Below are positions 817-33,853 of a stretch of DNA of 64,000 nucleotides, in pieces. The notes below the pieces were generated by a model. It had not been told where the DNA came from and searched no databases. It saw only the letters and a list, made by a program, of their open reading frames with translations. The first letter of the stretch is position 1, and the number at the start of each line of letters is the position of its first letter. The position numbers and the translations under genes are program-made. Source of the DNA: Elusimicrobiota bacterium (GTDB taxonomy: Bacteria; Elusimicrobiota; Elusimicrobia; JACQPE01); the NCBI GenBank assembly GCA_042563375.1, contig JBHPMF010000002.1, positions 75,842 through 139,841 on the forward strand, read 5' to 3'.

Positions 817-2064
817 ATGGCAGATTTAGATTGGAATAAAAATAAAAAACAGGTCGCGGATACCAAAAAGATCCTGGAGCAATATCCCAATATCCAGGAA
901 TTCGCTGTCAGCCCTGATGGCGAGAAGATCGCGGCTGTTGTAAAAAACCAGGAAGGCCAGTTCACGGCATGCGTGAACGGTGAACTGTGGTCAAACACCT
1001 ATGAATATATGTGGCACCTGCGCTTCCTTCCAAACGGTAAGCTCATAGCTCTGGTCAAGATAGATGGAGAGTGGACGCTTGCCGTTGATAACGAAGCTTG
1101 GCCTGAGAAATTCGAATATGCATGGAACCCGAAATTAAGCGAAAACGGAGAGACAATAGGACTTCTCTGCAAGCGCGACAATGTATACGGGGTAAGCCTT
1201 AATGGCAAGTTCTGGGAAAACACGTTTTTATCGATCCGTGATTATGCGATAAGCCCCGACGGCAAGCATGCCGCAGCAACAGTCCAGATAGACCCCCTGA
1301 AGGAAGCTGATGTCGAAGGATTTTTCAAGGGAGTCTGGAGCGTGGCGGTCGACGGCAGCGCATGGGGCGGCAAATATGTTAACTGCTGGAGCCCGATATT
1401 CAACTCTGACAGCTCAAAAGTGGCAGCTGAGATACGCACAGGCATCTGCGAATACTCGATCGCGCTCGATAATAAACCGTGGGATACGAAATTCGGATGC
1501 GTCTGGGCGCCTATATTCAAGCCGGGAAGCTCCTCGGTCATAACTCCCATAAGAGACCAGGGGAAATGGTCGCTTGCGGAGAACGGCAGTCCTATATGGG
1601 GCGGATATGTTCAGATCTGGCAGCATAAATTCAGTCCGGATGCTTCAAAAATAGCAGCAATAGTGGCACCCAGTTTCGGCAAATGGACCATAGCTGTAAA
1701 TGATAAGCCATGGGCCGATACCTACTCTGACATGGTACTATCCCCCATATTCTCCCCTGATAGCAAGAATGTTGCAGCCATCATTAAGGATAATGACAAA
1801 TGGACGATCGCAGTCAACGGAAAAGCATGGAAACAAGATTTCGATATGATCTGGGACCCGGCATTGAGCACTTCCGGATCAGTCGCTGCCAAGGCAGAAA
1901 AAGACAAAAAGTATATGATCGTTCTCAACGGCAATATCATCCCAAAAACCTATGAGAAACTCTGGGACCCCATATTCAGCCCGGATGGCGAAAAAATATT
2001 GCTGCGCTATGTAGAGGATGGAAAATATTTCAGAGAAGTTGCAGCCTTCGGAGATCTCAAATGA
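817..2064 (+). CDS. Tryptophan-rich repeat protein, PD40/TolB-like beta-propeller-type repeats, cytoplasmic (possible TmcD analogue)
   Basis: 415 aa with 21 Trp. Nine ~45-aa units, e.g. KWTIAVNGKAWKQDFDMIWDP and KWTIAVNDKPWADTYSDMVLSPIFSPD. Recurrent SPDG/SPDS motifs; no signal peptide; first gene after the promoter at 694. Confidence 0.7.
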   Translation: MADLDWNKNKKQVADTKKILEQYPNIQEFAVSPDGEKIAAVVKNQEGQFTACVNGELWSNTYEYMWHLRFLPNGKLIALVKIDGEWTLAVDNEAWPEKFEYAWNPKLSENGETIGLLCKRDNVYGVSLNGKFWENTFLSIRDYAISPDGKHAAATVQIDPLKEADVEGFFKGVWSVAVDGSAWGGKYVNCWSPIFNSDSSKVAAEIRTGICEYSIALDNKPWDTKFGCVWAPIFKPGSSSVITPIRDQGKWSLAENGSPIWGGYVQIWQHKFSPDASKIAAIVAPSFGKWTIAVNDKPWADTYSDMVLSPIFSPDSKNVAAIIKDNDKWTIAVNGKAWKQDFDMIWDPALSTSGSVAAKAEKDKKYMIVLNGNIIPKTYEKLWDPIFSPDGEKILLRYVEDGKYFREVAAFGDLK

Positions 2065-2163
2065 ATTTCCTTCTTCCTTTTAGCCCTCAGCCCTCCGCGA
2101 AGCAGTCCTATGGTATGCCCCATAGGGCAGCCCTCAGCCCTTATACATGCGGAGCATCTATCC

Positions 2164-2811
2164 ATGTATGAATTCACGCGCGGCCCACTGATCTGGATAG
2201 CATTCCTCGTATTCATAGGAGGGACCATCTATAAGATCGTGACCGCATATACCCAGGTCAAAAAGGAAAAAGTGGTCCTCCCGTATATGGACCTTAAATA
2301 CGGCATGCGCTCTATCATTCACTGGGTAATCCCATTTGGCAGTAAGAATATGAGGATACGCCCTGTCTTCACTATTCTCTCCTTCATATTCCATTTCTGC
2401 CTTATAGCCGCACCGATATTCCTTCTGGGGCACAATCTCTTATGGAAAGAAGCTTTTGAGATCTCATGGTGGTGTTTCCCGGAAAAAGTAACCAATGTAA
2501 TGGCGTTCATTGTTGTAATAATCGGATTCTTTTTCCTGTTAAGAAGGATGGTCAGCCCCACTTTGCGCTTTATCAATGAATGGACTGATTATGGCTTTAT
2601 TCTCATTGTGCTGCTGCCTTTTATCACAGGGATCATGGCTTATTACCAGATCTTTGATTATGCGACTGTAATGACGCTGCATATCTGGTCAGGCGCGATA
2701 TGGCTTATGGCTATTCCTTTCACGCGAGTAATTCATATGATCTATTTCCCCTTAACCAGAGCCTACATGGGCTGTGAATTCGGCCTGGTGCGCAACGCGA
2801 GGGACTGGTAA
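2164..2811 (+). CDS. Membrane di-heme cytochrome b subunit, NarI/DsrM/HmcE-like
   Basis: ORF track gives 2110..2811. I prefer ATG 2164 (MYEFTRGPLIWIAFLVFIGG...) because the first 18 codons lie in a repeat. About 5 TM helices with conserved His (HWVIPF, FHFCLIAAP, HIWSG, VIHMIY). Confidence 0.75.
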   Translation: MYEFTRGPLIWIAFLVFIGGTIYKIVTAYTQVKKEKVVLPYMDLKYGMRSIIHWVIPFGSKNMRIRPVFTILSFIFHFCLIAAPIFLLGHNLLWKEAFEISWWCFPEKVTNVMAFIVVIIGFFFLLRRMVSPTLRFINEWTDYGFILIVLLPFITGIMAYYQIFDYATVMTLHIWSGAIWLMAIPFTRVIHMIYFPLTRAYMGCEFGLVRNARDW

Positions 2812-2833
2812 TGAAGAATGTGACACCCCGCAT

Positions 2834-2882
2834 TTCCCCTCGCCCCTTGGGGGAGAGGGCAAGCGAAGCGCGGGTGAGGGGT
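2834..2882. repeat. Family A hairpin repeat (CCTCGCCCCTTGGGGGAGAGGG...GGGTGAGGGG) between the cyt-b and HdrD-like genes
   Basis: ttcccctcgccccttgggggagagggcaagcgaagcgcgggtgaggggt. Related copies at 7386, 19118, 19206, 23161, 25151, 25451, 27438, 40185 and 49008. Confidence 0.8.
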
Positions 2883-2964
2883 TTCCTTTTAAAAAATAAA
2901 GGCAATCAACGGGGCGCAAGTCTCCGCGCTACGACAAGAAAAGAGAAGGCTGAAAAAATTTAAT

Positions 2965-4299
2965 ATGAAGATCTTCGACACTCCGGAAAGCAAGGTCATA
3001 GACCCCGGTCTGGACGAGACCGTAAAAAAACTCACTCCCGAGAAGATCAAGAAAGTTATCCAGCATGTCTTAACCAAGGAAACAGGCGCGCGCTTGAAGA
3101 TCTACCAAGACACATGCGTGCGCTGCGGGCTTTGCGCTGAAGCCTGCCATACATACCTTTCGCGCAACCGCGATCCCCTGTTCGCTCCTGTATCAAAGGT
3201 AAAAAATACGCTTTTGGAACTTATTAAAAGCAATGGCGATGTGAGCCCTGAATTCGTGCGCCAGATGGCGCGCATCGTGTTCACCGAATGCGGCGGCTGC
3301 CGCCGCTGCAGCATGTACTGCCCGTTCGGGATCGATATTTCCTATCTCATAACAGTGGTGCGCAGGATATGCAACCTTCTGGGCGTTGTGCCGCTTTATC
3401 TGCAAGATACGACCAACAGCCACTCAGTGACCTTCAATCAGATGTGGGTTCAAGCTGATGAGTGGATAGATACCTTGCAATGGCAGGAAGAAGAAGCTCA
3501 GATGGAGATGAAAGGCGCTGTGATCCCCCTTGAGAAAGAGGGCGCTGATATTATGTATTCAGTCATTGGGCCTGAGCCCAAGATCCTGGCCCAGTTGCTG
3601 GGTAATATTGCCAAGATCATGAAAGTAGCCGGCCTTGACTGGACCATGCCGGCCACTGATGGCTGGGACAACAGCAACATGGCCATGTATTCAGGGGATT
3701 TTGAGATCATGGGCCGCGTTGAACGACTTCACTGGGAAACAGCAGCAAGGCTGAAGGTGAAAAAAATAGTTATGGGTGAATGCGGACACGCTTTCCGGGG
3801 AGCAGTATATGACGGACCCCGCTGGCTCGGCTGGCAATACCCCCCCATACAAATGGTGCATGCTATCGAATTTTATTATGACCTGATAAAAAGCGGAAAG
3901 ATCAAGATCAAGAAGAAATACAAGGAACTCGTCACTGTGCAGGACCCGTGCAATACAGTGCGCGGCCGCGGTTTAGGTTATAAACTGCGCTTTGTCATAG
4001 ACGCGCTATGCGAAAATTTTATCGATGTAAGCCCTAATCACGAACACAACTACTGCTGCGCAGCCGGAGGCGGAATCATCAATTGTGGTCCTCCATGGAA
4101 AATCTCACGCATGACAAGCAATAAGGTGAAGGCTGAACAGCTCGCAGAAACAAAGGCGCACGTTGTCATAACCCCATGCCACAACTGCCACAGCGGACTC
4201 GAAGATATCATCAAACACTATCGCCTCGGCATGCACACCAAATTCATAAGCGAGATCCTTGTGGAAGCCATGGAAATACCGGAGGATCTGCAGCCATGA
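2965..4299 (+). CDS. Cytoplasmic Fe-S / CCG-domain protein, HdrD/DsrK/HmcF-like
   Basis: 444 aa. Two ferredoxin-type motifs (CVRCGLCAEACH, CGGCRRCSMYCP) plus CCG-domain cysteines (DPCNTVRG, NYCCAAGGG, PCHNCH). Its stop overlaps the next start (ATGA at 4296-4299). Confidence 0.85.
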   Translation: MKIFDTPESKVIDPGLDETVKKLTPEKIKKVIQHVLTKETGARLKIYQDTCVRCGLCAEACHTYLSRNRDPLFAPVSKVKNTLLELIKSNGDVSPEFVRQMARIVFTECGGCRRCSMYCPFGIDISYLITVVRRICNLLGVVPLYLQDTTNSHSVTFNQMWVQADEWIDTLQWQEEEAQMEMKGAVIPLEKEGADIMYSVIGPEPKILAQLLGNIAKIMKVAGLDWTMPATDGWDNSNMAMYSGDFEIMGRVERLHWETAARLKVKKIVMGECGHAFRGAVYDGPRWLGWQYPPIQMVHAIEFYYDLIKSGKIKIKKKYKELVTVQDPCNTVRGRGLGYKLRFVIDALCENFIDVSPNHEHNYCCAAGGGIINCGPPWKISRMTSNKVKAEQLAETKAHVVITPCHNCHSGLEDIIKHYRLGMHTKFISEILVEAMEIPEDLQP

Positions 4300-5354
4300 G
4301 CATAACACGGCGTAAATTCCTAGGCATCCTAGGAGCCGGCACCGCTACCGCGGCCCTGCCCGATATTACTCGCGCCATGCAGGAATTCAAAGGGTACGCG
4401 AACAGTCTGGGCGTGCTTCATGATACCACGCGCTGTGTAGGTTGCCGTTCATGCGAAGAAGCTTGCAATGAAGTAAATGCTCTCCCGGCACCCGAAGCTT
4501 CCTTTAAGGATGAAAAGATACTTGATGCGACACGCCGCACGAACTACAAAACTTTCACTGTTGTCAATAAATATAAAGTCCAAAAGAAAACAAAAAAAGG
4601 CGAAAAAAAGACCTTAACGATTTTTAGAAAACAGCAATGCAATCATTGCCTAGAGCCTGCATGCGCTTCAGCTTGCTTTGTGAGCGCGTTTAAGAAAACT
4701 CCACAGGGCTCTGTAAGTTATAACGAAGATGTGTGCGTGGGATGCAGATACTGCATGGTGGCTTGCCCATTTTACGTGCCAACATACTCATACAACAGCC
4801 CTTTTGACCCAAAGATCACCAAGTGCACAATGTGCCTCCCAAGGATCCTTGAAGGAAAACTCCCTGGATGCGTTGAAGCGTGCCCGGCTGAAGCGCTTAC
4901 ATTTGGCAAGCGTGATGACCTTCTAAAGATCGCGCGCACGCGCATAAAAGATCATCCGGACAGATATATAAACAAGATATACGGTGAGCATGATATGGGC
5001 GGCACAAGCTGGATGTATCTCTCAGGTGTGCCATTCGAAAAACTGGGCCTGCCCAACCTTGGCAAGACCCCGGCTCCGGACCTCACGCATGGCGCCCTCT
5101 CGGCCGTGCCTGTTGTGATCCCGTTATGGCTCACGTTCCTCACGGGCATGTATGCCATAAACAAAAACAAAGATAAGGAAAACAAACTGGACAAAGAAAA
5201 CTCTGTTGAAAGCGCAATGGCCAAAGTGCGCGAAGAGGAATCCAAAAAAGCCGCTGCAACAGCTGAAAGACTAAAGAAGGAAAAGGAAAAAGCAGTGGAA
5301 ACAGCCGTGAAAAAAGCTTTGAGCGAGCAAGGAAAAAATCAGGAAAAGAAATGA
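4296..5354 (+). CDS. Tat-exported 4x[4Fe-4S] ferredoxin subunit, DsrO/HmcB/PsrB-like, with a C-terminal TM anchor
   Basis: ORF track starts at 4176, but the twin-arginine signal MSITRRKFLGILGAGTATAALP begins at ATG 4296. Cys clusters: CVGCRSCEEAC, CNHCLEPACASAC, CVGCRYCMVACP, CTMC..CVEACP. TM helix VPVVIPLWLTFLTGMYAI followed by a K/E-rich tail. Confidence 0.85.
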   Translation: MSITRRKFLGILGAGTATAALPDITRAMQEFKGYANSLGVLHDTTRCVGCRSCEEACNEVNALPAPEASFKDEKILDATRRTNYKTFTVVNKYKVQKKTKKGEKKTLTIFRKQQCNHCLEPACASACFVSAFKKTPQGSVSYNEDVCVGCRYCMVACPFYVPTYSYNSPFDPKITKCTMCLPRILEGKLPGCVEACPAEALTFGKRDDLLKIARTRIKDHPDRYINKIYGEHDMGGTSWMYLSGVPFEKLGLPNLGKTPAPDLTHGALSAVPVVIPLWLTFLTGMYAINKNKDKENKLDKENSVESAMAKVREEESKKAAATAERLKKEKEKAVETAVKKALSEQGKNQEKK

Positions 5355-5381
5355 CCTCAGAACAATTAATGCCCACCCGTT

Positions 5382-5416
5382 CTGTCATCCTGAATTTAGT
5401 TCAGGATCTCAACAGG
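5382..5416. repeat. Family B solo hairpin (CTGTCATCCTGAATTTAGTTCAGGATCTCAA)
   Basis: Same sequence as the left end of the full elements at 18654-18763 and 57419-57519. Lies between the FeS and NrfD-like genes. Confidence 0.8.
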
Positions 5417-5439
5417 TCATTCCTTTTAGGATCCAATCT

Positions 5440-6660
5440 ATGACCGACTTAATAGACATAAAAGCCCTTATAGCCAGGATCAAGGAGATCATTGCATCTG
5501 AGATCGAATACTTAAAAACCGGAGTCATCTTCACCCCGTTCAACATCATTTCAGGCCTCATCGTACTCATGGGCATCTATCTTACGTTCTTAAGATTCAC
5601 CGGAGGCCTTGCTTCAGTCTCTAACCTTTCAGACAATACCCCTTGGGGTATCTGGATATCATTCGACCTGTACACAGGAGTCGCTTTAGCTGCCGGCGGA
5701 TATGTGACAAGCGCGGCTGTGTATATCTTCGGCATGAAAAAACACCATTCAGCTGTGCGCCCTGCCATACTCACAGGATTCTTGGGCTACGCGCTGGTCG
5801 TATTCGCCTTGCATTATGATGTTGGAAGACCATGGCGCCTGCCTTACCCCTTTATCATGAGCCGCGGAGTCACATCTGTGATGTTCGAGGTGGCAGCATG
5901 CGTTGCCATGTATCTTTCCGTGCTTTTCCTTGAATTCTCGCCCGCAGCCCTCGAGTGGCTCGGCATTAAAAAACTAAGGAGCCTGATACGCAAATTTACG
6001 ATAGCGCTTACGATCTTCGGTGTCGTGCTCTCAACGCTTCACCAGTCATCATTGGGAGCCATGCTTTTGATCGCTCCCGGAAAACTTCACCCCCTATGGT
6101 ATTCGCGCTTTGTGCCTGTATTTTTCTTTGTTTCAAGCATCGCAGCCGGGCTTTCCATGGTACTTTTCGAAGGACTGCTTTCTCATAGATATTTCAAGGT
6201 GGATGAGCATCATCACAAGCAATACGACAGCTTGACCATGACATTCGGCAAAGCTTCAGCCATGGTTCTTGCCGGATATTTCGCGATCAAGATGATAGGA
6301 GTGGCTGAAAGCAATCACTGGGGCCTGCTCTTAACGCCATACGGAGCCCTATTCCTTACTGAGATATTGGGATTCGTGCTTTTACCTTGTTTTCTCTTCA
6401 CGATCGGCTACAAAGAGAGAAATCTGGGACTTATAAGGATATCAGCTGTTATTACAGTACTTGGGATAATGTTCAACAGATTTAACATGACATTTTTCGC
6501 CTTCAACTGGCAACTGCCATGGAGCCAAAGATATATACCGCACTGGATGGAAATAGGCATATCAGTGTTCATAGTAACGGTCGGGATACTTGTGTATAGA
6601 TTTATAGTAAACAGGATGCCTATACTGCACGAGCATCCTGACTACAAGGAAGCCCATTAA
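5440..6660 (+). CDS. NrfD/PsrC-family integral membrane quinone-interacting subunit (DsrP/HmcC-like)
   Basis: 406 aa and highly hydrophobic, with about 10 predicted helices. Sits directly after the Tat FeS subunit, as in Psr/Nrf/Dsr/Hmc modules. Confidence 0.85.
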   Translation: MTDLIDIKALIARIKEIIASEIEYLKTGVIFTPFNIISGLIVLMGIYLTFLRFTGGLASVSNLSDNTPWGIWISFDLYTGVALAAGGYVTSAAVYIFGMKKHHSAVRPAILTGFLGYALVVFALHYDVGRPWRLPYPFIMSRGVTSVMFEVAACVAMYLSVLFLEFSPAALEWLGIKKLRSLIRKFTIALTIFGVVLSTLHQSSLGAMLLIAPGKLHPLWYSRFVPVFFFVSSIAAGLSMVLFEGLLSHRYFKVDEHHHKQYDSLTMTFGKASAMVLAGYFAIKMIGVAESNHWGLLLTPYGALFLTEILGFVLLPCFLFTIGYKERNLGLIRISAVITVLGIMFNRFNMTFFAFNWQLPWSQRYIPHWMEIGISVFIVTVGILVYRFIVNRMPILHEHPDYKEAH

Positions 6661-6661
6661 A

Positions 6662-6796
6662 ATGGAGCATAGCAGCATACATACTCTCCAGGAATTCTTA
6701 CTCCACACTGAAGCTGTGATGTATGTGGTTGCTGTTATGATATTGATCGGATTTATATGGTTCTATGGCGCACTAACAAGCAATGAAGAAAATTAA
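6662..6796 (+). CDS. Unlisted 44-aa single-TM peptide (HmcD-like position)
   Basis: Hand translation: MEHSSIHTLQEFLLHTEAVMYVVAVMILIGFIWFYGALTSNEEN*. ATG lies 1 nt after the NrfD-like stop (TAAaATG). AAGGA sits 11 nt upstream. The 3' end overlaps the cytochrome start by 14 nt. Below the 60-aa ORF-track cutoff. Confidence 0.5.
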   Translation: MEHSSIHTLQEFLLHTEAVMYVVAVMILIGFIWFYGALTSNEEN

Positions 6797-8423
6797 ACGA
6801 AACATCCTGATCTTTTTCCTTCTTATTTCTCTGAGCACCATATCCATCGCCAAAGTAAAAGAATACCTGGCAAACAACCGGGCCGGAGTCATCACAATAA
6901 ACGCTGCAGAGCAGTTCGGACCTCTTGAAAGACCGCCTGTCACATTTCTCCATGGCAAACATGTCAGCGAACTGGCAAAACAGAACAAGGATTGCAATGT
7001 CTGCCATTTAACGGACAGCGCCAATAACGAATACCGCTCGCTTAAATTCCTGCGCAACAAAGAAACAGGCAAACAAGAAATCATGGACCTCTACCACGCC
7101 AAATGTGTAGAGTGCCATAAGGAAAGATCGGATCAAGGACTTGAAGCAGGCCCCGCCACGACCAATGAGTGCGGCATATGCCACATACGCGAGCCTAAAG
7201 TCTCCGCGCTAAGACAGGATGTGGAACTGGATAAATCCCTGCACTACCGCCATGTCAAAGCGCATAAGGATAAATGCGATAAGTGCCATCATGAATATAA
7301 TGAGAAAAATAAAAAGATCTATTACGCCAAAGGCCAAGAACGCTCCTGCCGCGACTGCCATATAGAGGAGGACTCCCTATCTTCGCCTCGCCCCTTAAGC
7401 GAAGCTTCTTCTCTTTCCTCTCTCCCTTTGAGGGAGAGGGCTAGGGTGAGGGGTATCAAGAACTCCGAGATTTCCTCCATGCGCACAGCCTCCCACAAAC
7501 AATGCATATCCTGTCATAAAATCAATGCCTCAAAGAACAAAGACACAGGCCCCGTATCATGCGAAGGGTGTCACGACAGGAGCAAACAGCTTGCTTATAA
7601 AAAGATAAAGCGCGTACCACGGATTAAGCGCAACCAACCTGACATAGCGTTGGTATGCCCCATAGATTTAAAGAAAGGCAGAATGAAAACAGTACCCTTC
7701 AATCACAAAGTGCACGAACAAGCTAATGACACCTGCCGCGCATGCCATCACGAGAGTCTTAAGGCATGCAAAGATTGCCACACGGTCTTCGGAGATGACA
7801 AGGCGGAAGGCACGACCTTGGCCATGTCAATGCATGATATGGCGTCAAAACACAGCTGCGTAGGATGCCACAACAGCGAAAAGGTCAAGACGGATTGCGC
7901 GGGATGCCACAAGAACATGAAACAGGGCGGACTAAGCGATAAGAACTGCCAAACCTGCCACAGAGGCCCCATGCCAAAAACCGTTAAATCAAAGGGTAAG
8001 ATGTCAGCGCATTATCTGAAGATGCTTGCTAAAAGAAATTATTCAAAACTTTCCTGGAACAATACTGAAATTGAGAAAACTATAAAGATCAGCCAACTAA
8101 GTGAAAAATACGAACCAGCTATTTTCCCCCATCGCAAGATCATTGATCATCTGAGAAAAAAGATCAAGAAAAGCAACCTTGCCAAGACATTTCACGAAAA
8201 CGAGAACGCCATGTGCCTGGGCTGCCATCATAACAATCCCGCAGATGCCAAGCCAGCCAAATGCAGTCATTGTCACGGCAAACCATTTGACAGCAGGAAT
8301 CTTGATATCAGCATGCCGGGCTTAAAAGGCGCCTACCACCTCCAATGCATGGGCTGTCATACCAACATGGGATTAGAAAAACACAACGACTGCACGACCT
8401 GCCACAAAGAAAAGAAGAAATAG
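6783..8423 (+). CDS. hmcA: 16-heme periplasmic cytochrome c, HmcA-like high-molecular-weight cytochrome
   Basis: 546 aa with a signal peptide (ILIFFLLISLSTISIA). I counted 16 CxxCH motifs, from CNVCH and CVECH through CMGCH and CTTCH. Carries a 23-codon repeat-derived insert at 7386-7454. Confidence 0.9.
   Translation: MKKIKRNILIFFLLISLSTISIAKVKEYLANNRAGVITINAAEQFGPLERPPVTFLHGKHVSELAKQNKDCNVCHLTDSANNEYRSLKFLRNKETGKQEIMDLYHAKCVECHKERSDQGLEAGPATTNECGICHIREPKVSALRQDVELDKSLHYRHVKAHKDKCDKCHHEYNEKNKKIYYAKGQERSCRDCHIEEDSLSSPRPLSEASSLSSLPLRERARVRGIKNSEISSMRTASHKQCISCHKINASKNKDTGPVSCEGCHDRSKQLAYKKIKRVPRIKRNQPDIALVCPIDLKKGRMKTVPFNHKVHEQANDTCRACHHESLKACKDCHTVFGDDKAEGTTLAMSMHDMASKHSCVGCHNSEKVKTDCAGCHKNMKQGGLSDKNCQTCHRGPMPKTVKSKGKMSAHYLKMLAKRNYSKLSWNNTEIEKTIKISQLSEKYEPAIFPHRKIIDHLRKKIKKSNLAKTFHENENAMCLGCHHNNPADAKPAKCSHCHGKPFDSRNLDISMPGLKGAYHLQCMGCHTNMGLEKHNDCTTCHKEKKK
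7386..7454. repeat. Family A repeat copy inserted in frame inside the 16-heme cytochrome gene
   Basis: 69 bp: cctcgccccttaagcgaagcttcttctctttcctctctccctttgagggagagggctagggtgaggggt. Encodes PRPLSEASSLSSLPLRERARVRG between heme motifs 5 (CRDCH) and 6 (CISCH). Confidence 0.8.
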
Positions 8424-8527
8424 GCGCTATCCGCTAAACCGGCAAACAAAACCCTCTCTGTCATTGCGAGGCAATCTCAGGCGCACGAATAGCCAAAAAG
8501 GAAGGCAGGGTTAATTCAGGGTTATTC

Positions 8528-15834: not shown

Positions 15835-16235
15835 GTAAAGAAAAGCAGAAATGGGGTACAGACTTCCATATCCAAAGAGAAGCCAGTCCTTGAAAGACGC
15901 TTCGCCCGTAAAAGGTAAGCTCCCGCGCTACGAAAAATCTGCCATCTATAATTTCGCCCTTCTTCTGCCCTGCCCCCTCTTCTTTCTGCTCATTAAGTTT
16001 CCGCCGAGAAACTTGAAAAGAGCGGTATTCTCATTGAGATCCTGAATCAAGTCCAGGATGACAGATAAGATATGTGCACACCCTTTTGTGCCCAAGCGGT
16101 ATGCTCCGCAAGGTATAATTCAGCCCTTCTTTATTTAGCCCTTTATTCATACTGGTACTTTATTCCCGGAATTTATAGGATTTATGGGTACGGCAAGCCC
16201 TGGTTTCCACGGGCTTAGCCAATAGGAGCATTATC

Positions 16236-17574: not shown

Positions 17575-17782
17575 CTGTCATTGCGAGACGCTTTACCGCT
17601 CTTCTATATTAAGGAGAAGCGCCGCGGCAATCTCAAAAACACGGAAAGCTCATAATAGGCCCCTGCCTTGCGCATAACACTATAGCAAACACAACATCAT
17701 ATTCTTACGTATTATTTGGGTTTGAGATTGCCACGCCCCGCTTTCTTTATAAATATCAGGGACGCGGAACTCGCAATGACAG
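17575..17782. repeat. Two Family C repeats (GTCATTGCGAG...CAATCTC) in inverted orientation between convergent genes
   Basis: 17575-17637: ctgtcattgcgagacgc...gcggcaatctcaaa. 17721-17782: tttgagattgccacg...ctcgcaatgacag. Other copies at 8457-8480 and 23978-24017. Confidence 0.8.
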
Positions 17783-17797
17783 AAAGGCTATTCCTGG

Positions 17798-18622: not shown

Positions 18623-18653
18623 TGTGTTGTCTCCTTTTGGGCATTTTTCCACG

Positions 18654-18763
18654 CTGTCATCCTGAATTTAGTTCAGGATCTCAATAAGAACATTCCTTAT
18701 TGATTTTTTCACGGAATAAAGCAGAAAACTTTATGAGATCCTGAATCAAGTTCAGGATGACAG
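18654..18763. repeat. Full-length Family B MITE-like element (110 bp) with ~35-bp terminal inverted repeats
   Basis: CTGTCATCCTGAATTTAGTTCAGGATCTCAATAAG ... CTTTATGAGATCCTGAATCAAGTTCAGGATGACAG. Second full copy at 57419-57519. Solo ends at 5382, 16036 and 57253. Confidence 0.75.
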
Positions 18764-18772
18764 CAAAATCGA

Positions 18773-19042
18773 TTACTCTTTTATTATCCCTTCACGCATG
18801 GCATCCTCGGACCATACCGGCAAAGGGCCTTTTTCGCCGGTATTGGGATCATAACGGTGCCTGTAAGAAACAGTGTGGCTGTATTTCTCTTTCATCCATT
18901 CCCAGCCTTTCACATAATAAGAACACTCATTATTAAAACACACGTATTGGCCTACGCGGTCCCAGGACGCGCCCTCCGGCGGCATCCATTTAAGCATCTT
19001 TACCCCGCAATGCGGGCATTTAGCGTCTTTGTCGTCTGGCAT
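18773..19042 (-). CDS. Small 4-Cys zinc-ribbon protein, function unknown
   Basis: 89 aa. CPHCG ... CFNNEC. Lies downstream of aprA on the same strand. Confidence 0.5.
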   Translation of the reverse strand: MPDDKDAKCPHCGVKMLKWMPPEGASWDRVGQYVCFNNECSYYVKGWEWMKEKYSHTVSYRHRYDPNTGEKGPLPVWSEDAMREGIIKE

Positions 19043-19117
19043 ATGTCTATATTTTACCTCTTTGGGCCCCCTCCGGCCTTGACCCCACCCATCTTTTTCC
19101 TCGCTTTTCTCCCCATA

Positions 19118-19265
19118 TTCCCTCCCCCTTGAGGGGGGAGGCTAGGTGGGGGTGATAGAGCTTCTCCGCTTATATTTTGCCACTCATCCCCCATCATTTC
19201 ATTTTGGGTGAGGTGGGCTTCCTCTTAATCACCCTCACCCAACCTCTCCCCTCAAGGGAGAGGAG
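19118..19265. repeat. Two Family A repeats in opposite orientation downstream of aprA
   Basis: 19118-19169: ttccctcccccttgaggggggaggctaggtgggggtgatagagcttctccgc. 19206-19265 is the reverse-oriented copy (atcaccctcacccaacctctcccctcaagggagagg). Confidence 0.8.
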
Positions 19266-19309
19266 TAAAAACAACGAGCCCTCCGAACGCTTGCGCGCCC
19301 GGAGGGCTC
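19266..19309 (-). terminator. Probable intrinsic terminator of sat-aprBA
   Basis: 10-bp GC-rich stem GAGCCCTCCG (19276-19285) / CGGAGGGCTC (19300-19309). On the minus strand it is followed by GTTGTTTTTA. Lies 28 nt after the aprA stop. Confidence 0.55.
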
Positions 19310-19336: not shown

Positions 19337-21205
19337 TCAAAGAACAGAGAGAATTTCTCTCTTATCCATTTTCCATTCGTTCTTTTCGATATTGTAGGTG
19401 CAGTTTGCGAACACCTTCCAATCTTCCTTCATCTGAGGCTTGTCTGATCGGAGATAGTATCCCGGCCAGCGAGTCTCATCTCTGAACAACATGGTTCTCA
19501 TGTGGCTCTCAGCCTGCCATGATCTCTGGATATTCTCCCAGCAGCGCATAAGCTCGTGCAGGTTCTCTGCTGCAAGCTTCTCTGAGTCCTCTTTGAGGAC
19601 ATTAAGGAACTCAAGGCCCCTTGTAAGAAGCTTTTCATTGGTGGTGAAGCTTGTTGAAACTCCGCCTGCGTATTCATCCATGAGCTTTTGTAGCCTGAAC
19701 ATGTACTGCTTGGGACTGATGTAATTCGGGTTGACTGTGGGGTCGGTTGTTTCAGCCTTGTGCTTTTCATAGAGTTCCATAGGTCGCAAGATCCTCTCTT
19801 TAAGAGCTTCGATCTTTTTAGCGTCGACTTCCGGAAGGTCTTTGTTCTCAACCGCGAATTTACACATTGCTTTGCCGGCAATTCTTCCCTCAGCGTGTGA
19901 GCCGGAGGAGAATTTGTGGCTGGAAGCGCCCGTGGCATCGCCTGCCGCGAAAAGGCCTTTAACTGTGGTCATGTTTGTATAACCCCAGAAATAGCCCTTC
20001 GGAGCGATATCTTCAGGTCCGCTCACCCATGCGCCGGAGGCGCCGGAGTGTGAACCAATGAAGTAAGGCTCGCAAGCTGCGATCTCGGATGGCTTCTGCT
20101 CTGGCATTGTGTCTGTTGCTGCCCAAAGTATTGCTTGAGAGATCGTCATGTCAAGAAAGTCTTCCCATGCTTCACTCTCGAGCTCTTTGAGCTTTTTCTT
20201 TCTCTCTTTCTCGTCAGGGACCTGAGAAGAAAGGTTCTTAATGGCTTCTTCTGTTCTCATGTAGATGGGGCCTTTGCCGTCTTTTACATCTAGCATCATA
20301 AGCCAGTTTCTTAGGTTAGCCGGAACGGGCTTAACCATTCCATAAGGTTTCCATTTCTCAAGCTCTGGTCTGTTGGTTTGCATGTAATTCTCGCCGAGTC
20401 CGTTTGTTGCTTGGGACTTAAATAGCAAGAACCACGCTCCAACTGGTCCGTAAGCATCCTTGAAGCGCACCGGAATAAAGCGCACTTCCTGGCATGTCAT
20501 CTCAGCGCCGGCTCGGATCGTGAAATACGCGCTGGCTCCTGAGTTGAACGGTGGATACCATGAACGGCCGAGACCTTCGCCGCCTGATCGCGGTCTGAAG
20601 ATATGTACGGCTCCGCCCATGCAAGCGAGAACTGCTTTTGCCTTAAAGACATAGAATTTGTTCTCGCGGGTGCTAAATCCAACAGCACCTACGCATCGGC
20701 CTTTCTCCACGAGAGGCTCCACGATGAAGACTCTCTCATAGATATTCTCGGTGCCCAAAGCGTTCTTTGCCGCTTCAGCAACGATTACCTTGTATGACTC
20801 ACCGTTGATCATGAGCTGCCATCTGCCTTCATGCACATACTTTCCTTCTGCATCTTTCCAGATTGGCAATCCCCATTTCTCAAATAAGTGGACTGATGAA
20901 TCAACGTGCCTGGCGATGTTGGCCACGAGATCCTCACGGGTGATGCCCATAAGGTCGTTTCGCACGTAGTCAATGTAGTCTTTCAATGTGTTCTGGCCGT
21001 CTTTCAATCCAACGTATTGATTGATGGCTGAAAGGCCCATCGCAACAGCGCCGGAGCGCTCCATTGATGCCTTGTCAACCAGGGCGACCTTGAGTCCATG
21101 TTTCTTGGCCCAGTATGCAGTTTCAACGGCAGCGCCGCAAGCAGCCATACCACCGCCAAGAATCAGGATGTCGCTTTTTACTTCAACTGTTTCGAATTTT
21201 GGCAT
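19337..21205 (-). CDS. aprA: Adenylylsulfate (APS) reductase alpha subunit
   Basis: 622 aa. FAD-binding N-terminus DILILGGGMAACGAAVE. The sequence reads as characteristic AprA throughout. Immediately follows aprB. Confidence 0.95.
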   Translation of the reverse strand: MPKFETVEVKSDILILGGGMAACGAAVETAYWAKKHGLKVALVDKASMERSGAVAMGLSAINQYVGLKDGQNTLKDYIDYVRNDLMGITREDLVANIARHVDSSVHLFEKWGLPIWKDAEGKYVHEGRWQLMINGESYKVIVAEAAKNALGTENIYERVFIVEPLVEKGRCVGAVGFSTRENKFYVFKAKAVLACMGGAVHIFRPRSGGEGLGRSWYPPFNSGASAYFTIRAGAEMTCQEVRFIPVRFKDAYGPVGAWFLLFKSQATNGLGENYMQTNRPELEKWKPYGMVKPVPANLRNWLMMLDVKDGKGPIYMRTEEAIKNLSSQVPDEKERKKKLKELESEAWEDFLDMTISQAILWAATDTMPEQKPSEIAACEPYFIGSHSGASGAWVSGPEDIAPKGYFWGYTNMTTVKGLFAAGDATGASSHKFSSGSHAEGRIAGKAMCKFAVENKDLPEVDAKKIEALKERILRPMELYEKHKAETTDPTVNPNYISPKQYMFRLQKLMDEYAGGVSTSFTTNEKLLTRGLEFLNVLKEDSEKLAAENLHELMRCWENIQRSWQAESHMRTMLFRDETRWPGYYLRSDKPQMKEDWKVFANCTYNIEKNEWKMDKREILSVL

Positions 21206-21226
21206 GTTATATGTTCTCCTTGGTTG

Positions 21227-21682
21227 TTACTTTACGCCTGCCGTTTGCTTTACCTGCGCCAGATCTTTCATACCGTTTGATTCGGGCTCAGTATAGAGCA
21301 ATTGGCTGTTGAGATCGTCCGTCGATTTAAAACCACCGTCTGGTACTGCAGAACCTTCCGGAGTCGTTCTGATCGGGAACTTGAATCTCTTCAGTGTTCC
21401 GCCGCGGAATTTTACTGTCCACATAATGGAATCAGAGCTGCGAAGCGGCGTAACGCTTGCGCCCATAGGAACAAAGTCAGCGTATCCGCGAACTTCGATT
21501 GCCTGTACGGGGCAGATCTTAACGCAGCACATACATTCCCAGCACATGGCCGGGTCTCTATTGAACGCCTTCATGGACTCTTTGTTAAGAGCCATAAGGT
21601 CGTTGGGGCAAATGTGTTGACAAGCTGTCTTGTCGAGTGCTTTACACCCGTCACATTTGCTGGTGATCACGTAACTTGGCAT
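21227..21682 (-). CDS. aprB: Adenylylsulfate reductase beta subunit (2x[4Fe-4S])
   Basis: 151 aa. MPSYVITSKCDGCKALDKTACQHICPNDLM and CWECMCCVKICP. Confidence 0.95.
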   Translation of the reverse strand: MPSYVITSKCDGCKALDKTACQHICPNDLMALNKESMKAFNRDPAMCWECMCCVKICPVQAIEVRGYADFVPMGASVTPLRSSDSIMWTVKFRGGTLKRFKFPIRTTPEGSAVPDGGFKSTDDLNSQLLYTEPESNGMKDLAQVKQTAGVK

Positions 21683-21759
21683 ATATGCCCTCCTTAGTTA
21701 GTTTTTATCTTGCAAGCTAGCTTTTGCAAGTTCTCCCAGTTTAAATCCTGGAAATTTTC

Positions 21760-22983
21760 TTATTTTTTCTGAGTAGCTGTACCGGTCGCATGACCGTGCA
21801 GCTTGATCTCGACTTTCTCGGTGAGAGTTGCGTAATACTTACGCAGGATCTCAAGAACTTCAGGTCGGCTGAATTCCTTGGGAACATCGCCGCCTTCTGA
21901 AAGCGCTTTTCTAAGAGCAGTGCCGCTCAAAAACAGCCTTTCCTCTTTTTTATGCGGGCAAGTCTTCATTGAAGCCATGCCTCCGCATGTATAGCACCAG
22001 AATGTCCAGTCGATCGGCAGCATCTTGCACTTGAGCGCTCCGTCCCAGAGCTTGTGATATGACTCTTGGGCATCGAATGGTCCATAGTAGTTTCCGACTC
22101 CTGCATGGTCGCGCCCGATGATCATATGGGAGCAGCCGAAATTCTGTCGGAAAAGTCCGTGCAGCAATCCTTCGCGAGGACCTGCGTAGCGCATATCAAG
22201 AGGATATCCGCCGACAGCCACTCTGTTCTTATCGAAGTAATGATCAACAAGGGTGTTGATGCAGTCGACTCGAACATCAGCGGGAATGTCTCCGGGTTTA
22301 AGATTGCCTACGAGCTGGTGGATATAGATCCCGTCGCTTACTTCTGTTGCGATTTTCGCGAGGTATTCATGTGAGCGGTGCATAGGGTTGCGCAGCTGCA
22401 ATGCAGCGATCGTCTTCCAGCCTTTTTCTTCAAATATCTTTCGGCTCTCAGACGGCCTCTGATAAAGACCTTTGAACTTCGTCGGGAAATAGCTCTCTGA
22501 CAAGACTTGCACAGTGCCGGCGATGTTGAATTCCTTCTGTCCCATCACCATCTTCACTCCGGGATGTTCCATATCGTTTGTTGTAAAGACATTCTTGCAC
22601 TCGAATTCCTTGTCGATCTTGTATGACTCGGTAACCTTGAGGATAGCCATGGTCTCGTTTGTTTCATCTGAAACAAGAGCCACTTCTGTTCCTGCGGGAA
22701 TCTTCTCGTCATGCGACATGGTGATCGGTATCGGCCAGAAAGTGCCGTTCTTCATTTTCATGTCCTGGCAAACGCCTTTCCAGTCTTCTTGACCCATAAA
22801 GCCGTCAAGAGGAGTGAATCCTCCGATTCCAAGCATAATAAGGTCGCCTGTTTCGCGGGAAGTTACAACGATTTTCTTTAACTTCTCAGCTTTTTTAAGA
22901 CCCTCTTCTTTCTCTTTTCCTTCAAGAAGCAGAACCTTTAACTTATCACTACCGTGAGGTGAGATCAGTGTGTTTTTAGACAT
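21760..22983 (-). CDS. sat: Sulfate adenylyltransferase (ATP sulfurylase)
   Basis: 407 aa. [11 protein letters not shown] and GRDHAGVG motifs. First gene of sat-aprB-aprA. Confidence 0.95.
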
Positions 22984-23160: not shown

Positions 23161-23220
23161 TCCCCTCTTTCCCCTCTCCCTTGAGGGGAGAGGGCAGGGT
23201 GAGGGTGATAAAGCTTCTCC
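23161..23220. repeat. Family A repeat in the sat / hypF divergent intergenic region
   Basis: tcccctctttcccctctcccttgaggggagagggcagggtgagggtgataaagcttctcc. Confidence 0.8.
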
Positions 23221-23329
23221 TTACGAGAAAATGATTTCCGCCGTAAAATAAATCATCATCAATTCAAAGCCTGTGCTTGTTTTAGATAGCCGGCCCCAAA
23301 CAACCTCATCTATAACTTAAAATTGAGAC

Positions 23330-25873
23330 ATGCTCAAACGCCAGAAAATGACCATAAAAGGCAGGGTCCAGGGAGTAGGCTTCAGGCCCACTGCCTACCG
23401 CTATGCCCTGGAACTGGGCCTCGCAGGCAGCGTCTCAAATACCCATGACGGCGTTGTCGTAGACCTGCAGGGGCCCGTCAATAAGCTTGCTTCATTTGAA
23501 ACGCTACTAAAGGAAAAAGCGCCTCCCGGAGCCGCTATTAAGAGTATAGAGAAAAGGATCCTTGCTCCGTCTGAAAAACTTTATGGATTCTCGATATTAA
23601 AGAGCTCAAAAAACCAGCCGTCAAAAACACTTTTTCCGCCTGATCTGGGCCTGTGCGAGGCATGCTCCAAAGACATAAACAACCCGCACGATCGCCGCTA
23701 TAAATACCCGTTCACAAACTGCACGGATTGCGGCCCAAGATTCACGATCATTGAGAACCTGCCTTATGACCGCCCAAAAACAACCATGAAAGGATTCCAC
23801 ATGTGCTCTGATTGCCTGCGCGAATACAATGACCCCCTGAACAGAAGATTCCACGCCCAACCCAATGCATGCCCAAAATGCGGACCAATTGCAGAATTTA
23901 AGCCACTAAGGGAAAGAAAAAATAAAAGTTCTTTGCGCTATCCATTCTGTAACAATAATGGAAATAACACTGCCTCACTGTCATTGCGAGGAGCGGCAGC
24001 GACGAAGCAATCTCAAACAGGAATAAACGCTATTAAAAAAGCAGCTCAACTTATTGGTCAAGGCAAGGTTCTGGCCATCCAATCCCTCGGCGGATTCCAT
24101 CTGGCATGCGATGCTTATTCAGATAAGGCAGTCAAGAGACTGCGCGCTTTAAAGAACCGGCCACATAAGCCATTCGCCGTCATGTTGACCGGAGTACATA
24201 CCGCTCAAAAACATTGCGAAATAACGAGCCGGGAAGCATCAGCTCTTGAATCGCCCAGGGCGCCTGTTATCATGCTTGAAAAACACCATGGCTCAGGTCT
24301 CTCAAAACTCATTTCCCCGGGCTTAAATACCATGGGCATTATGCTTACTTATACCCCCCTGCATTCAATTCTTTTTAAGGAATTGAAAAGCTGTACGGAC
24401 GCTCTCGTCATGACCTCGGGCAATATCTCCGACGAGCCCATATGTAGGACGCCTGAACAAGCTTTAAGAAAATTAAACGGGATCGCTGACGCGTTTTTGA
24501 CCCATAACAGGCCTATCAGGAACCGCTGTGATGATTCTGTTGTATACATTCATCAGGATAAATGTATCCCCATCCGCCGAGCAAGAGGCTATGTGCCTGA
24601 CCCTGTGGAGATGAGAACCGCCTCTGCTACTCCCATCCTAGCCTGCGGAGCAGAACTCAAAACCACATTCTGCTTAACTCGAGACAACGAAGCATTCCCG
24701 TCAACCCACATCGGCGGCATGAAAGACCAAAAAACCACTGATTTTTACGAAGAAGCGCTGGGGCGGATGAGCAAATTTCTCGAAATAAAACCCGCGATCA
24801 TCGCTCATGATACGCATCTTGATTATCTGACAACGCGCATCGCAAAACAGCAAGCTAAAAAACTCAAACTTCCTGCCTCGCGCTTGATTCCCGTGCAGCA
24901 CCATCACGCTCACATCGCAAGCGTCATGGCAGAGCATAAGCTTGATAGAAAAGTTTTAGGCATAGCTCTTGACGGAACAGGCCTTGGCACGGATGGAACC
25001 ATCTGGGGAGGAGAATTCCTGGAAGTAAATGGAGCGGATTTTCGCAGAGTGGCCCATCTAAAGCCTGTCAGAATTCCCGGAGGCGATATCGCAGCAACCG
25101 AGATCTGGAGATGCGCCCTCCCATGGATCGAAAAAATCCATCTCTCTTCTTTCCCCTCTCCCTTGAGGGTCGGAGATGCTCCGAAGCCTTGGCGAAGGAG
25201 TGGAGAGGGCAGGGTGAGGGTGAATAAAGAAGCTCCGCTAAACATTACCAAAAACCTATTCAAAGACATCGACCCTAAAAAAATAGAATTCGCCTGGAAA
25301 ATGATGCAAAAAGGAATAAATTCCCCTCTGACTTCCAGCATGGGCCGCCTCTTCGACGCAGTCGCTGCCCTGATCAACGTACGCCACGAAACAACTTATG
25401 AGGCCCAAGCAGCCATGGAACTCGAAAGTCTCCTAATCCCTGTTTCTTCTTTTCCTCCCCCTGGATGGGGGAGGCTAGGCGGGGGTGGCAAAGCCTCACC
25501 TTCTTACACTTTCAAATATTCCCCCTCCCCCCATCTCCCCATAATAATCGACCCAACCCCAGCAATATCCTCCATCCTGACTGACCTAAAGTCAAAAAGA
25601 CCATCAAAGGAAATATCCTTAAAATTTCATGTCTGTGTCGCCAATATGATCGCGGAAATCTCAAAAACCCTGTGCAACCAACTTAAGATCAGAACAGTCG
25701 CCTTATCCGGCGGAGTATTTCAAAACAAAACACTTCTGAACCTGGCCATCCCGAAACTCAAACAAAAAGGATTAAAAACATTCACAAACACGCAAGTCCC
25801 CGCCAATGACGCGGGGATCTCCCTCGGCCAGGCATGGATCGCTATGCAGAAAATGCTAAATGCCAAGGGCTAA
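23330..25873 (+). CDS. hypF: [NiFe]-hydrogenase maturation carbamoyltransferase HypF
   Basis: 847 aa. Acylphosphatase domain (GRVQGVGFRP). Two Zn-finger pairs (CEACSKD..CTDCGPRF; CSDCLREY..CPKCGP). YrdC-like GGFHLACDA and a Kae1-like C-terminal domain. Contains three repeat-derived in-frame inserts. Confidence 0.95.
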   Translation: MLKRQKMTIKGRVQGVGFRPTAYRYALELGLAGSVSNTHDGVVVDLQGPVNKLASFETLLKEKAPPGAAIKSIEKRILAPSEKLYGFSILKSSKNQPSKTLFPPDLGLCEACSKDINNPHDRRYKYPFTNCTDCGPRFTIIENLPYDRPKTTMKGFHMCSDCLREYNDPLNRRFHAQPNACPKCGPIAEFKPLRERKNKSSLRYPFCNNNGNNTASLSLRGAAATKQSQTGINAIKKAAQLIGQGKVLAIQSLGGFHLACDAYSDKAVKRLRALKNRPHKPFAVMLTGVHTAQKHCEITSREASALESPRAPVIMLEKHHGSGLSKLISPGLNTMGIMLTYTPLHSILFKELKSCTDALVMTSGNISDEPICRTPEQALRKLNGIADAFLTHNRPIRNRCDDSVVYIHQDKCIPIRRARGYVPDPVEMRTASATPILACGAELKTTFCLTRDNEAFPSTHIGGMKDQKTTDFYEEALGRMSKFLEIKPAIIAHDTHLDYLTTRIAKQQAKKLKLPASRLIPVQHHHAHIASVMAEHKLDRKVLGIALDGTGLGTDGTIWGGEFLEVNGADFRRVAHLKPVRIPGGDIAATEIWRCALPWIEKIHLSSFPSPLRVGDAPKPWRRSGEGRVRVNKEAPLNITKNLFKDIDPKKIEFAWKMMQKGINSPLTSSMGRLFDAVAALINVRHETTYEAQAAMELESLLIPVSSFPPPGWGRLGGGGKASPSYTFKYSPSPHLPIIIDPTPAISSILTDLKSKRPSKEISLKFHVCVANMIAEISKTLCNQLKIRTVALSGGVFQNKTLLNLAIPKLKQKGLKTFTNTQVPANDAGISLGQAWIAMQKMLNAKG
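23978..24017. repeat. Family C repeat inside hypF (in frame)
   Basis: ctgtcattgcgaggagcggcagcgacgaagcaatctcaaa encodes ...SLSLRGAAATKQSQ..., in the linker between the second Zn finger and the YrdC-like domain. Confidence 0.8.
25151..25238. repeat. Family A long-variant repeat inside hypF (in frame)
   Basis: ttcccctctcccttgagggtcggagatgctccgaagccttggcgaaggagtggagagggcagggtgagggtgaataaagaagctccgc. Roughly 85-90 % identical by eye to 27438-27526. Encodes FPSPLRVGDAPKPWRRSGEGRVRVNKEAP. Confidence 0.8.
25451..25500. repeat. Family A repeat inside hypF (in frame)
   Basis: tttcctccccctggatgggggaggctaggcgggggtggcaaagcctcacc encodes FPPPGWGRLGGGGKASP. Confidence 0.75.
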
Positions 25874-25961
25874 GTGCTAAATGGAAAAAACAGAAAAAAT
25901 GACCGAAACAAAAAAATCTTCTATTTTTGCATTCAGCATTTATAATTTGTAATTTCTCTAT

Positions 25962-26183: not shown

Positions 26184-26203
26184 AACTTTCGCATTTTATC
26201 TCC

Positions 26204-26285: not shown

Positions 26286-26346
26286 CGAACCGAATCGATT
26301 TTCACGATTCGACGATAAGCACAGCTCAGGGTAATCACTAGAAACA

Positions 26347-33846: not shown

Positions 33847-33853
33847 AAAATGG

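Follow-up and report, generated by a model that had tools for sequence, protein, structure and literature searches.

A predicted intrastrand-triplex repeat of the BoxC/PIT/TM_ECO family lies in frame within the hexadecaheme cytochrome gene hmcA of an Elusimicrobiota bacterium

In-frame fusions brought about by small intragenic repeats are not rare, and the Rickettsia palindromic elements (RPEs) constitute their extreme case (PMC10969869). As far as they are related in that source, RPEs measure about 100-150 bp, belong to Rickettsia-specific families, each with a conserved peptide, and give rise to peptides thought to be compatible with the fold of the host protein (Ogata et al., 2000, 2002, via PMC10969869). 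[quoted passage not shown] Here we describe an insert in hmcA, the gene of a 16-heme cytochrome c, within a 64-kb stretch (hereafter the window) of a metagenome-assembled genome (MAG) of an Elusimicrobiota bacterium. Judged from its letters, this insert is a member of a different and long-known family, the intrastrand-triplex motif BoxC / PIT / TM_ECO, read through in the frame of the host gene.

The motif of this family, under the name TM_ECO, follows the pattern 5'-CCCTCNCCC-N3-6-GGGNGAGGG-N3-GGGNGAGGG-3', with one stem mismatch allowed, and 3,610 copies have been counted in 262 proteobacterial genomes; its earlier names are BoxC and PIT, for potential intrastrand triplex (Holder et al., 2015, PMC4666352). 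The BoxC work of the 1990s, as well as Maher et al. (2000) and its follow-up, enter here through their citation in that paper. The same Escherichia coli sequences have been presented as a switch between G-quadruplex, hairpin and duplex, under the names HPG1-HPG2 (Kaplan et al., 2016, PMC5100583). The E. coli copies are stated to be intergenic without exception (PMC4666352; PMC5100583). No association of these copies with transposons, phages or plasmids was found, structure-induced instability being proposed instead, and neither promoter nor terminator activity was found for the PIT elements in E. coli (PMC4666352).

The open reading frame (ORF) that carries the insert has a product of 546 amino acids (aa) with exactly 16 CxxCH motifs, according to its translation and a motif count. 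This product is 100% identical to the NCBI entry 'sulfate respiration complex hexadecaheme cytochrome HmcA [Elusimicrobiota bacterium]', matches the Desulfovibrio vulgaris HmcA structures 2e84, 1h29 and 1gws with E = 1e-106 to 1e-108, and contains the Pfam domains Cytochrom_CIII and C7. Apart from the self-identical entry, its closest homologue shows 51% identity, and a scan of named genomes for HmcA returned one unrelated locus only. The gene looks intact, because the heme cysteines and the histidine ligands, including H193 and H238 on the two flanks of the insert, are invariant in an alignment of 54 sequences.

Between heme motif 5 (C189) and heme motif 6 (C241) lies the peptide PRPLSEASSLSSLPLRERARVRG, aa 202-224 (nt 7386-7454), with neither a stop nor a frameshift. 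An earlier note on this DNA had claimed an in-frame repeat at precisely this place, and the uninterrupted ORF with its 16 CxxCH motifs bears this out. That note had also proposed an alignment with orthologues as a way to recognize a lineage-specific insertion. With the 119 best homologues (MAFFT), the segment is present in none: aa 199-223 are without counterpart in all 119, and four residues stand opposite positions 224-227 in three of them. Since the homologues are empty here, the extra segment amounts to 29 aa or 87 bp, and the length of 69 bp and 23 aa given previously has to be abandoned; the homology to the repeat family likewise runs on to about 7461-7463. With HMMER, the alignments to 1h29 and 2e84 are interrupted at the same point, where residues 198-231 of the query face about five residues; the insertion point is equivalent to residues 180-184 of 1h29. 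The insert has a GC content of 54%, compared with 46% in the rest of hmcA, its peptide has a pI of 11.8 and a charge of +3.8, and two of its six reading frames are free of stops, one of them being the frame of the gene itself. Its components are an extra arm, truncated, then 21 nt of spacer, a single complete unit and a short tail, as follows:

6783-8423, plus strand: hmcA, encoding a high-molecular-weight cytochrome c with 16 hemes and a signal-like N-terminus; carries the insert.
7377-7463, plus strand: the whole insert with respect to orthologues, LSSPRPLSEASSLSSLPLRERARVRGIKN (87 bp, 29 aa, aa 199-227); ends good to a few nt.
7386-7396, plus strand: extra upstream C-rich arm CCTCGCCCCTT, truncated, of the 'A mm' type; pairs with GGGTGAGG (7444-7451) as the outer stem of a nested hairpin.
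7418-7426, plus strand: C-rich arm of the triplex motif, CTCTCTCCC, one substitution away from CCCTCNCCC; 10-bp stem with 7432-7441 in the predicted fold.
7427-7431, plus strand: loop 1, TTTGA, from the fold and the pattern match.
7432-7440, plus strand: first G-rich arm, GGGAGAGGG, Watson-Crick partner of the C-rich arm.
7441-7443, plus strand: loop 2, CTA; E. coli copies have TTA, CCG or TCG here.
7444-7453, plus strand: second G-rich arm, GGGTGAGGG(G), mirror image of the first G-rich arm and would-be third strand of a purine-motif triplex.

What the earlier note called a palindromic repeat is in fact a unit of three arms, one C-rich and two G-rich, preceded by the truncated C-rich arm. The unit at 7418-7452, CTCTCTCCC-TTTGA-GGGAGAGGG-CTA-GGGTGAGGG, departs from the TM_ECO pattern by one substitution, no other copy of the window fitting as closely, and the fuzzy form of the pattern had no match in 50 shuffled windows. 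Its two G-rich arms are mirror-symmetric and complementary to the C-rich arm, which corresponds to a class II triplex design. Positions 7416-7459 match E. coli sequences with 87-91% identity over 44 nt (blastn), at chromosomal sites found in 3,693 of 5,426 complete genomes, and among the matches listed no annotated feature lies beneath any of the E. coli sites; copy no. 2 in Table 1 of PMC4666352 may be compared. The upstream arm CCTCGCCCCTT, for its part, matches the E. coli TM_ECO arm CCCTCGCCCCTT of the 'A mm' type (Table 1 in PMC4666352), and the arm variant CCCTCGCCCC found in the window is of this same type.

On these grounds the hmcA repeat is, to the extent that sequence can tell, a BoxC / PIT / TM_ECO intrastrand-triplex motif. 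It shares with that family the three-arm pattern, the multicopy state, the frequent inverted pairs and the lack of a linked transposase. Unlike the described copies, those of the window also occur inside coding sequences, where they are read through in frame; the host is an Elusimicrobiota MAG and not a proteobacterium; and the window holds long variants, with a 33-nt inner insertion, as well as a second sub-type with shifted arms. As regards location, the hmcA copy and three others lie in frame inside ORFs. Intergenic location describes the copies of E. coli and does not define the motif by structure, and therefore the element is still filed in the family.

The motif extends well beyond these two hosts. 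Its core, searched as CCTCTCCC-N3-6-GGGAGAGG-N2-5-GGGTGAGGG, occurs in at least 120 metagenome stretches of 31-75% GC, with unrelated flanks and commonly in inverted pairs, a taxonomic breadth that rests on the spread in GC and on three identified hosts (Elusimicrobiota, E. coli and Sphingomonas). Given this occurrence, the element is not lineage-specific. A search with the insert peptide returned six weak matches to short, spurious ORFs, to be taken as leads rather than as a census. One weak peptide match lay beside a Cmr locus, and a relationship with CRISPR was considered and rejected, the array repeat being unrelated and the copies being situated in leader or intergenic space. Four copies of the motif (L005, 769-1037; also L004, 9972-10254) have a PemK toxin gene pair on one side and a CRISPR array of 18 repeats on the other, beside a type III-B (Cmr) locus, which puts them in the leader region of that array.

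In E. coli itself, the spacer between tauD and hemB (L128-L130) is variable: about one third of the complete genomes have an allele that is 67 bp shorter, in which an unrelated hairpin replaces the whole spacer together with the motif, and one strain carries an extra 51 bp directly 5' of the motif. No clear target-site duplication was seen at this site, where the alleles differ by replacement of the whole spacer. Such variation agrees with the reported instability around triplex motifs. The abundance of the motif also differs among close relatives, as between E. coli, rich in it, and Salmonella, which lacks it, or between Enterobacter strains with more than 300 and with fewer than 30 copies.

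From the structural point of view, the RNA fold computed for the insert, by Watson-Crick pairing, is a nested hairpin at -35.6 kcal/mol, whose outer stem (CCUCGCCC/GGGUGAGG) has 8 bp and whose inner stem has 10 bp. Folding energy alone is not evidence here, because the insert only modestly beats its shuffles (z = -1.9); the other copies of the family range from z = -0.2 to -2.6. A G-quadruplex motif fits 7432-7453, that is, both G-rich arms taken together. As a trait of the whole family, the G-quadruplex was rejected, the canonical motif of four G3 runs with N1-7 loops being found only in the hmcA copy and in the one at 23185.

The insert belongs to a family that is abundant in the window, with about 12 copies in its 64 kb, including an inverted pair. 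Repeat finding puts 7410-7462 into one group with those at 2829, 19112, 23164, 25146, 27433 and 40207. The kinship with intergenic DNA that the earlier note had noticed is confirmed, as the family includes 2831-2880 and 23163-23223, and a nhmmer model built from four intergenic copies, the hmcA copy being left out, matches 7408-7461 with E=1.8e-7. In 100 shuffles, a 37-mer of the repeat was never matched by chance. The leftmost 30 nt of the hmcA insert fall outside the family core; nevertheless, the 11-mer CCTCGCCCCTT recurs exactly at 2838 and at 40188, where in both cases it forms the left arm of a member of the family. The other copies that could be delimited are these:

2831-2880, plus strand: intergenic copy, CCCCTCGCCCC...GGGGGAGAGGG...GGGTGAGGGG (repeat finding, nhmmer).
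19109-19170, plus strand: intergenic copy of the second sub-type, CCTCCCCC / GGGGGAGG / GGTGGGGG (nhmmer, sequence read directly).
19214-19275, minus strand: intergenic copy, inverted partner of 19109-19170 (repeat finding, nhmmer, pattern).
23163-23223, plus strand: intergenic copy (repeat finding, nhmmer, pattern).
25145-25238, plus strand: in-frame copy in hypF, aa ~601-637, a long variant in which an inner loop adds 33 nt (nhmmer, gap relative to 3vth).
25442-25503, plus strand: second in-frame copy in hypF, second sub-type, aa ~705-724 (nhmmer, gap relative to 3vth).
27433-27518, plus strand: copy in hypD, forming a 34-aa C-terminal tail (repeat finding; end of the 2z1d alignment).
40188-40233, plus strand: partial intergenic copy with the architecture of the hmcA insert (extra arm, spacer, start of the unit), with a GTAG-type palindrome in place of its 3' half.

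In the second sub-type, found at 19109, at 25451 and also at a metagenome locus (L006), a single interruption shifts together in all three arms. Such a coordinated shift fits the requirement of a purine-motif triplex, and a plain hairpin would not need it. The long variants, at 25150-25231 and 27437-27518, are 80% identical to each other and have in common a 33-nt inner insertion. No Rfam family matched the repeat in the window at gathering threshold, and on six repeat-rich loci only chance-level miRNA matches appeared at E<=1.

Four of the 12 copies are genic in a window that is 83% coding, which represents a significant depletion (binomial P=1.6e-4). All four, one in hmcA, two in hypF and one in hypD, are in frame, and they fall at gaps or ends with respect to homologues. 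In the product of hypF (23330-25873), aa ~601-637 face four residues of 3vth and aa ~705-724 face a gap; a third extra segment of this protein, aa 191-233, derives from a different short repeat. In that of hypD (26347-27537), the alignment to 2z1d stops at aa 362 of 396, and the gene's stop codon shares bases with the start codon of the ORF that follows. These four copies (n=4) have one and the same orientation and frame.

Copies read in frame are also present in other organisms, among them in the valyl-tRNA synthetase (ValRS) of the Sphingomonadaceae, where one site is an insertion hot spot. In a Sphingomonas ValRS (L026), an inverted pair of motifs of 42 aa faces three residues of the Thermus thermophilus enzyme (1gax) and splits the Pfam catalytic domain. 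About half of 120 orthologues from the family have nothing at the site, TLGWP(D/E)^...L.RHYPNDV, and the filled ones have variable in-frame inserts of ~10-60 aa, many of which translate the motif (LSPAGRGQGEG ... PSPQPSP.GGEG), some of the inserts coming from another G/C-rich repeat (FVLSEVEG...RASTSLSTNG / ELVE...LRQAQGER); the proteins vary from 872 to 1008 aa in length (P0127-P0246). At the DNA level, an empty site (L131), a site with a single copy and a remnant (L132) and the inverted pair (L026) form a series that shows both gain and decay, in which no clean target-site duplication was found. In-frame copies of the motif were further detected in NuoG (L089), in a DEAD/DUF3516 helicase (L075) and in a HemW-like radical-SAM protein (L047), where they enclose tandem repeats of ~29 aa each, ~280 aa in all, inserted so as to separate the CxxxCxxC motif from the remainder of the radical-SAM domain. 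Other candidate genic copies were set aside: c1, c2, c4, c8 and c9 look like antisense artefacts, GC-rich long ORFs running over the motif, and in c5, and probably in L062, L086, L104 and L048, the motif is upstream of the true start or the case is unverifiable.

How, then, does this locus compare with the systems described above? Like the RPEs, the copies described here are short, multicopy repeats with inverted arms that lie in frame in unrelated conserved genes, RPEs being translated, as far as Ogata et al. (2000, 2002) are reported in PMC10969869. The parallel drawn in the earlier note holds for this phenomenon of in-frame insertion; it does not hold for what it implied, a lineage-specific, RPE-like element, as the repeat matches E. 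coli BoxC and at least 120 metagenome stretches. Unlike RPEs, the triplex-motif unit measures ~35-95 bp, has three arms and not two, crosses phyla at the DNA level and is read in differing frames and orientations in different genes. With an Elusimicrobiota host and a sequence that matches E. coli BoxC, it is set apart from RPEs by their very description. The Coxiella burnetii QMITE1/2 supply C-terminal residues and a stop codon and raise the pI of the host protein (PMC5896051), to which the tail of HypD and the basic loop of HmcA may be compared; unlike the hmcA insert, which is internal and lacks terminal inverted repeats (TIRs), they sit, within functional genes, at 3' ends and do have TIRs (PMC5896051). 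More generally, MITEs are recognized by TIRs matching those of an insertion sequence (IS): none of the family copies has TIRs, their palindrome being internal, and the window contains neither an IS nor a transposase. As for the REP/REPIN sequences mobilised by RAYT proteins, they are also short, G/C-rich, imperfect palindromes, highly repeated, often in inverted pairs and mostly intergenic, but they are species-specific and carry a GTAG or CGTC end tag (PMC3733652), whereas the triplex-motif family is cross-phylum and neither tag was found on its copies. Finally, a Pfam scan of the 54 long ORFs of the window detected no transposase, integrase or RAYT.

Taking all this into account, we consider that the hmcA insert is one copy of BoxC / PIT / TM_ECO together with a truncated extra arm, tolerated as a translated in-frame insertion between heme motifs 5 and 6, and we give this reading a probability of roughly 0.8. 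Its steps could be the following. The single strand of the unit would be able to fold as a hairpin, as an intrastrand purine-motif triplex or as a G-quadruplex, and the motif has been suggested to promote local instability through fork stalling, repair and illegitimate recombination (PMC4666352). Arrival from other copies by templated repair or recombination is our guess, which we favour over classical transposition. Once in the gene, the insert would be transcribed and translated as a basic, probably disordered loop of 29 residues, tolerated by the exported cytochrome. Given how c-type cytochromes mature, a disordered loop should be no obstacle for a protein that passes through Sec unfolded. 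A survivorship filter would then operate, most genic insertions being lost and those that are stop-free, a multiple of three in length and situated in permissive loops or termini being kept; both the depletion in genes and the two open frames out of six fit such a filter. A benefit to the host would not be needed to explain the persistence of the insert. That the extra residues form a flexible loop at the surface is indirectly supported: in the HmcA family the insertion site corresponds to a short variable linker, with a small indel in 3 of 119 homologues, and AlphaFold predicts the insert with a pLDDT of 44-53, between flanks of 78-88, in a model without hemes.

Several points weigh against this explanation. 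The low pLDDT is a weak sign of disorder, because the segment has no alignment depth and the hemes are not modelled. Both the translation and the assembly of the insert are deduced rather than directly observed. There is no near-empty HmcA allele, the best homologue standing at 51%, and therefore the junctions are known only within a few bases. Furthermore, the strong conservation of the arms across genomes of 31-75% GC fits neutral junk poorly and suggests a sequence-specific process. Likewise, the one orientation and frame shared by the genic copies of the window could hint at something beyond a passive filter, though copies elsewhere occur in both orientations.

An alternative is that the repeat is a lineage-specific selfish palindromic element, similar to RPEs or MITEs and mobilised by a transposase whose gene lies in another part of the genome, of which the window covers 64 kb. 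The dozen or so copies within it and their in-frame occurrence in genes, as with RPEs, would agree with this, and so would the two nearest Elusimicrobiota relatives, in which no family copies were found over the 33 kb around hmcA. Nevertheless, these copy-free relatives say little, because their genomes are distant (62% GC). Moreover, a core that is ~90% identical to E. coli BoxC/TM_ECO and recurs in metagenomes of such different composition is hardly what a lineage-specific element would offer, and neither TIRs, nor a convincing target-site duplication, nor a transposase in the window were found; for the E. coli motif, too, no link to transposons, phages or plasmids was found (PMC4666352). 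We regard this alternative as improbable.

It would be similarly improbable, in our opinion, that the insert is adaptive, either because the basic loop of 29 aa provides a new docking surface, or because a hairpin, G-quadruplex or triplex in DNA or mRNA regulates transcription, translation or export. The strongly basic character of the loop speaks in its favour, as do the preservation of the hmcA copy, the best in the window at one substitution from the pattern, the common orientation and frame of the four genic copies, and the potential of the sense strand for a switch between G-quadruplex and hairpin (PMC5100583). However, the peptides that the same repeat yields in HypF, HypD, ValRS and NuoG are unrelated, both orientations being read, and copies are depleted in genes. 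Among close relatives within the Sphingomonadaceae, the ValRS site is filled, partly deleted or empty, as neutral gain and loss predicts, and the PIT elements of E. coli lack promoter and terminator activity (PMC4666352).

That a metagenome assembler spliced the repeat into hmcA, or that binning misled us, is very unlikely. It is true that the source is a MAG, that short repeats can mislead assemblers and that the protein is known from one contig only. But both flanks are collinear with orthologues, with nothing lost or duplicated; the insert is in frame and free of stops, like the three further copies in hypF and hypD on the same contig; the unit of 87 bp is shorter than typical reads; the hmcA copy has an extra arm and a unique spacer that are not seen elsewhere in the window; and the same phenomenon is met in independent assemblies of other organisms.

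Lastly, the idea that the segment is present in the gene and absent from the protein, through removal from the mRNA or through ribosome bypass from TCC 7374-7376 to TCC 7464-7466 (90 nt), as in T4 gene 60 or the mobile yeast mitochondrial 'byp' elements, is scarcely credible: ACTCC direct repeats (7372-7376 and 7462-7466, 90 nt apart, compared with 87 nt implied by the orthologue spacing) do flank a strong nested hairpin, and a 90-nt skip would give a linker of 13 residues, against a family norm of 14, but a 5-nt repeat is weak evidence, no stop follows the putative take-off codon, the other genic copies have no comparable flanking repeats, and a bypass is unnecessary, because the insert is open in the frame of the gene.

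With regard to the genomic context, the window is a sulfate-respiration region, in which 817-8423 holds an hmc-type complex, 19337-22983 sat and aprBA, and 23330-29394 hyp genes. Taken at the level of gene content, sat, aprB, aprA and the hmc genes indicate a putative dissimilatory sulfate reduction in this Elusimicrobiota MAG. The hmc-type complex comprises CCG/Fer4 subunits, a NrfD-like protein and HmcA, and the genes after it encode response regulators as well as a PAS histidine kinase. The locus is syntenic with those of two distant Elusimicrobiota MAGs (L002 and L003), both without the insert, and the synteny includes a 43-aa DVU_0533-like gene upstream of hmcA.

Other repeats coexist in the window. 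A second family, (C)GTAGCGCGG..GCTTGTA..CCGC, is found at 2907-2938, 15906-15937, 30848-30948, 33742-33850 and 40239-40311; it begins with GTAG, like the GTAG-tagged REP super-family, and forms perfect 31-nt inverted pairs (40239-40307), with no RAYT in the window. A third family, CTGTCATCCTGAATTTAGTTCAGGATCTCAA, and a fourth, CTGTCATTGCGAGGAGCGGCAGCGACGAAGCAATCTCAA, one copy of which lies inside hypF, occupy sites at 5376-5430, 16015-16067, 18646-18781, 57243-57522 and 62982-63008, as well as at 23970-24010, 8453-8471 and 17575-17790. These two families have common ends (CTGTCAT ... ATCTCAA) around differing hairpins, as if there were one frame with interchangeable stems. Two long palindromes in intergenic DNA, perfect or nearly so, are unrelated to the repeat families: one at 51268-51335, with 31-nt arms and a 6-nt loop, and another of 57 nt at 43938-43994, just upstream of a tRNA gene (44017-44101).

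Small repeats in frame are already known, and so is the BoxC / PIT / TM_ECO family; the new aspect is the genic, in-frame location of the latter. In the literature we found no report of BoxC / PIT / TM_ECO in a coding sequence, translated, or in genes of Elusimicrobiota or Sphingomonadaceae, though our coverage is incomplete and earlier reports may exist. A broader view can be put forward, tentatively and at somewhat less than even odds: BoxC/TM motifs would be a cross-phylum, actively spreading class of elements that repeatedly colonises coding regions in frame and thereby constitutes an overlooked source of lineage-specific loops and tails, its spread being due to a sequence-specific mechanism, either a dedicated enzyme or structure-induced templated repair.

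Work on BoxC / PIT / TM_ECO goes back to the 1990s and has led neither to agreement on its function nor to an established way of spreading, and its range goes far beyond the proteobacterial genomes in which it was first reported. Coding insertions have constrained, alignable flanks, so that the empty, single and paired alleles of ValRS may be used to reconstruct arrival and decay. They are also natural experiments on how far a multiheme cytochrome or an aminoacyl-tRNA synthetase tolerates an additional loop. For annotation, peptides such as PLSLRERVRVRG or LSPAGRGQGEG within conserved proteins should be recognised as derived from repeats. And if these motifs are indeed an actively spreading class, the filled and empty coding alleles would make the mechanism of their spread tractable.

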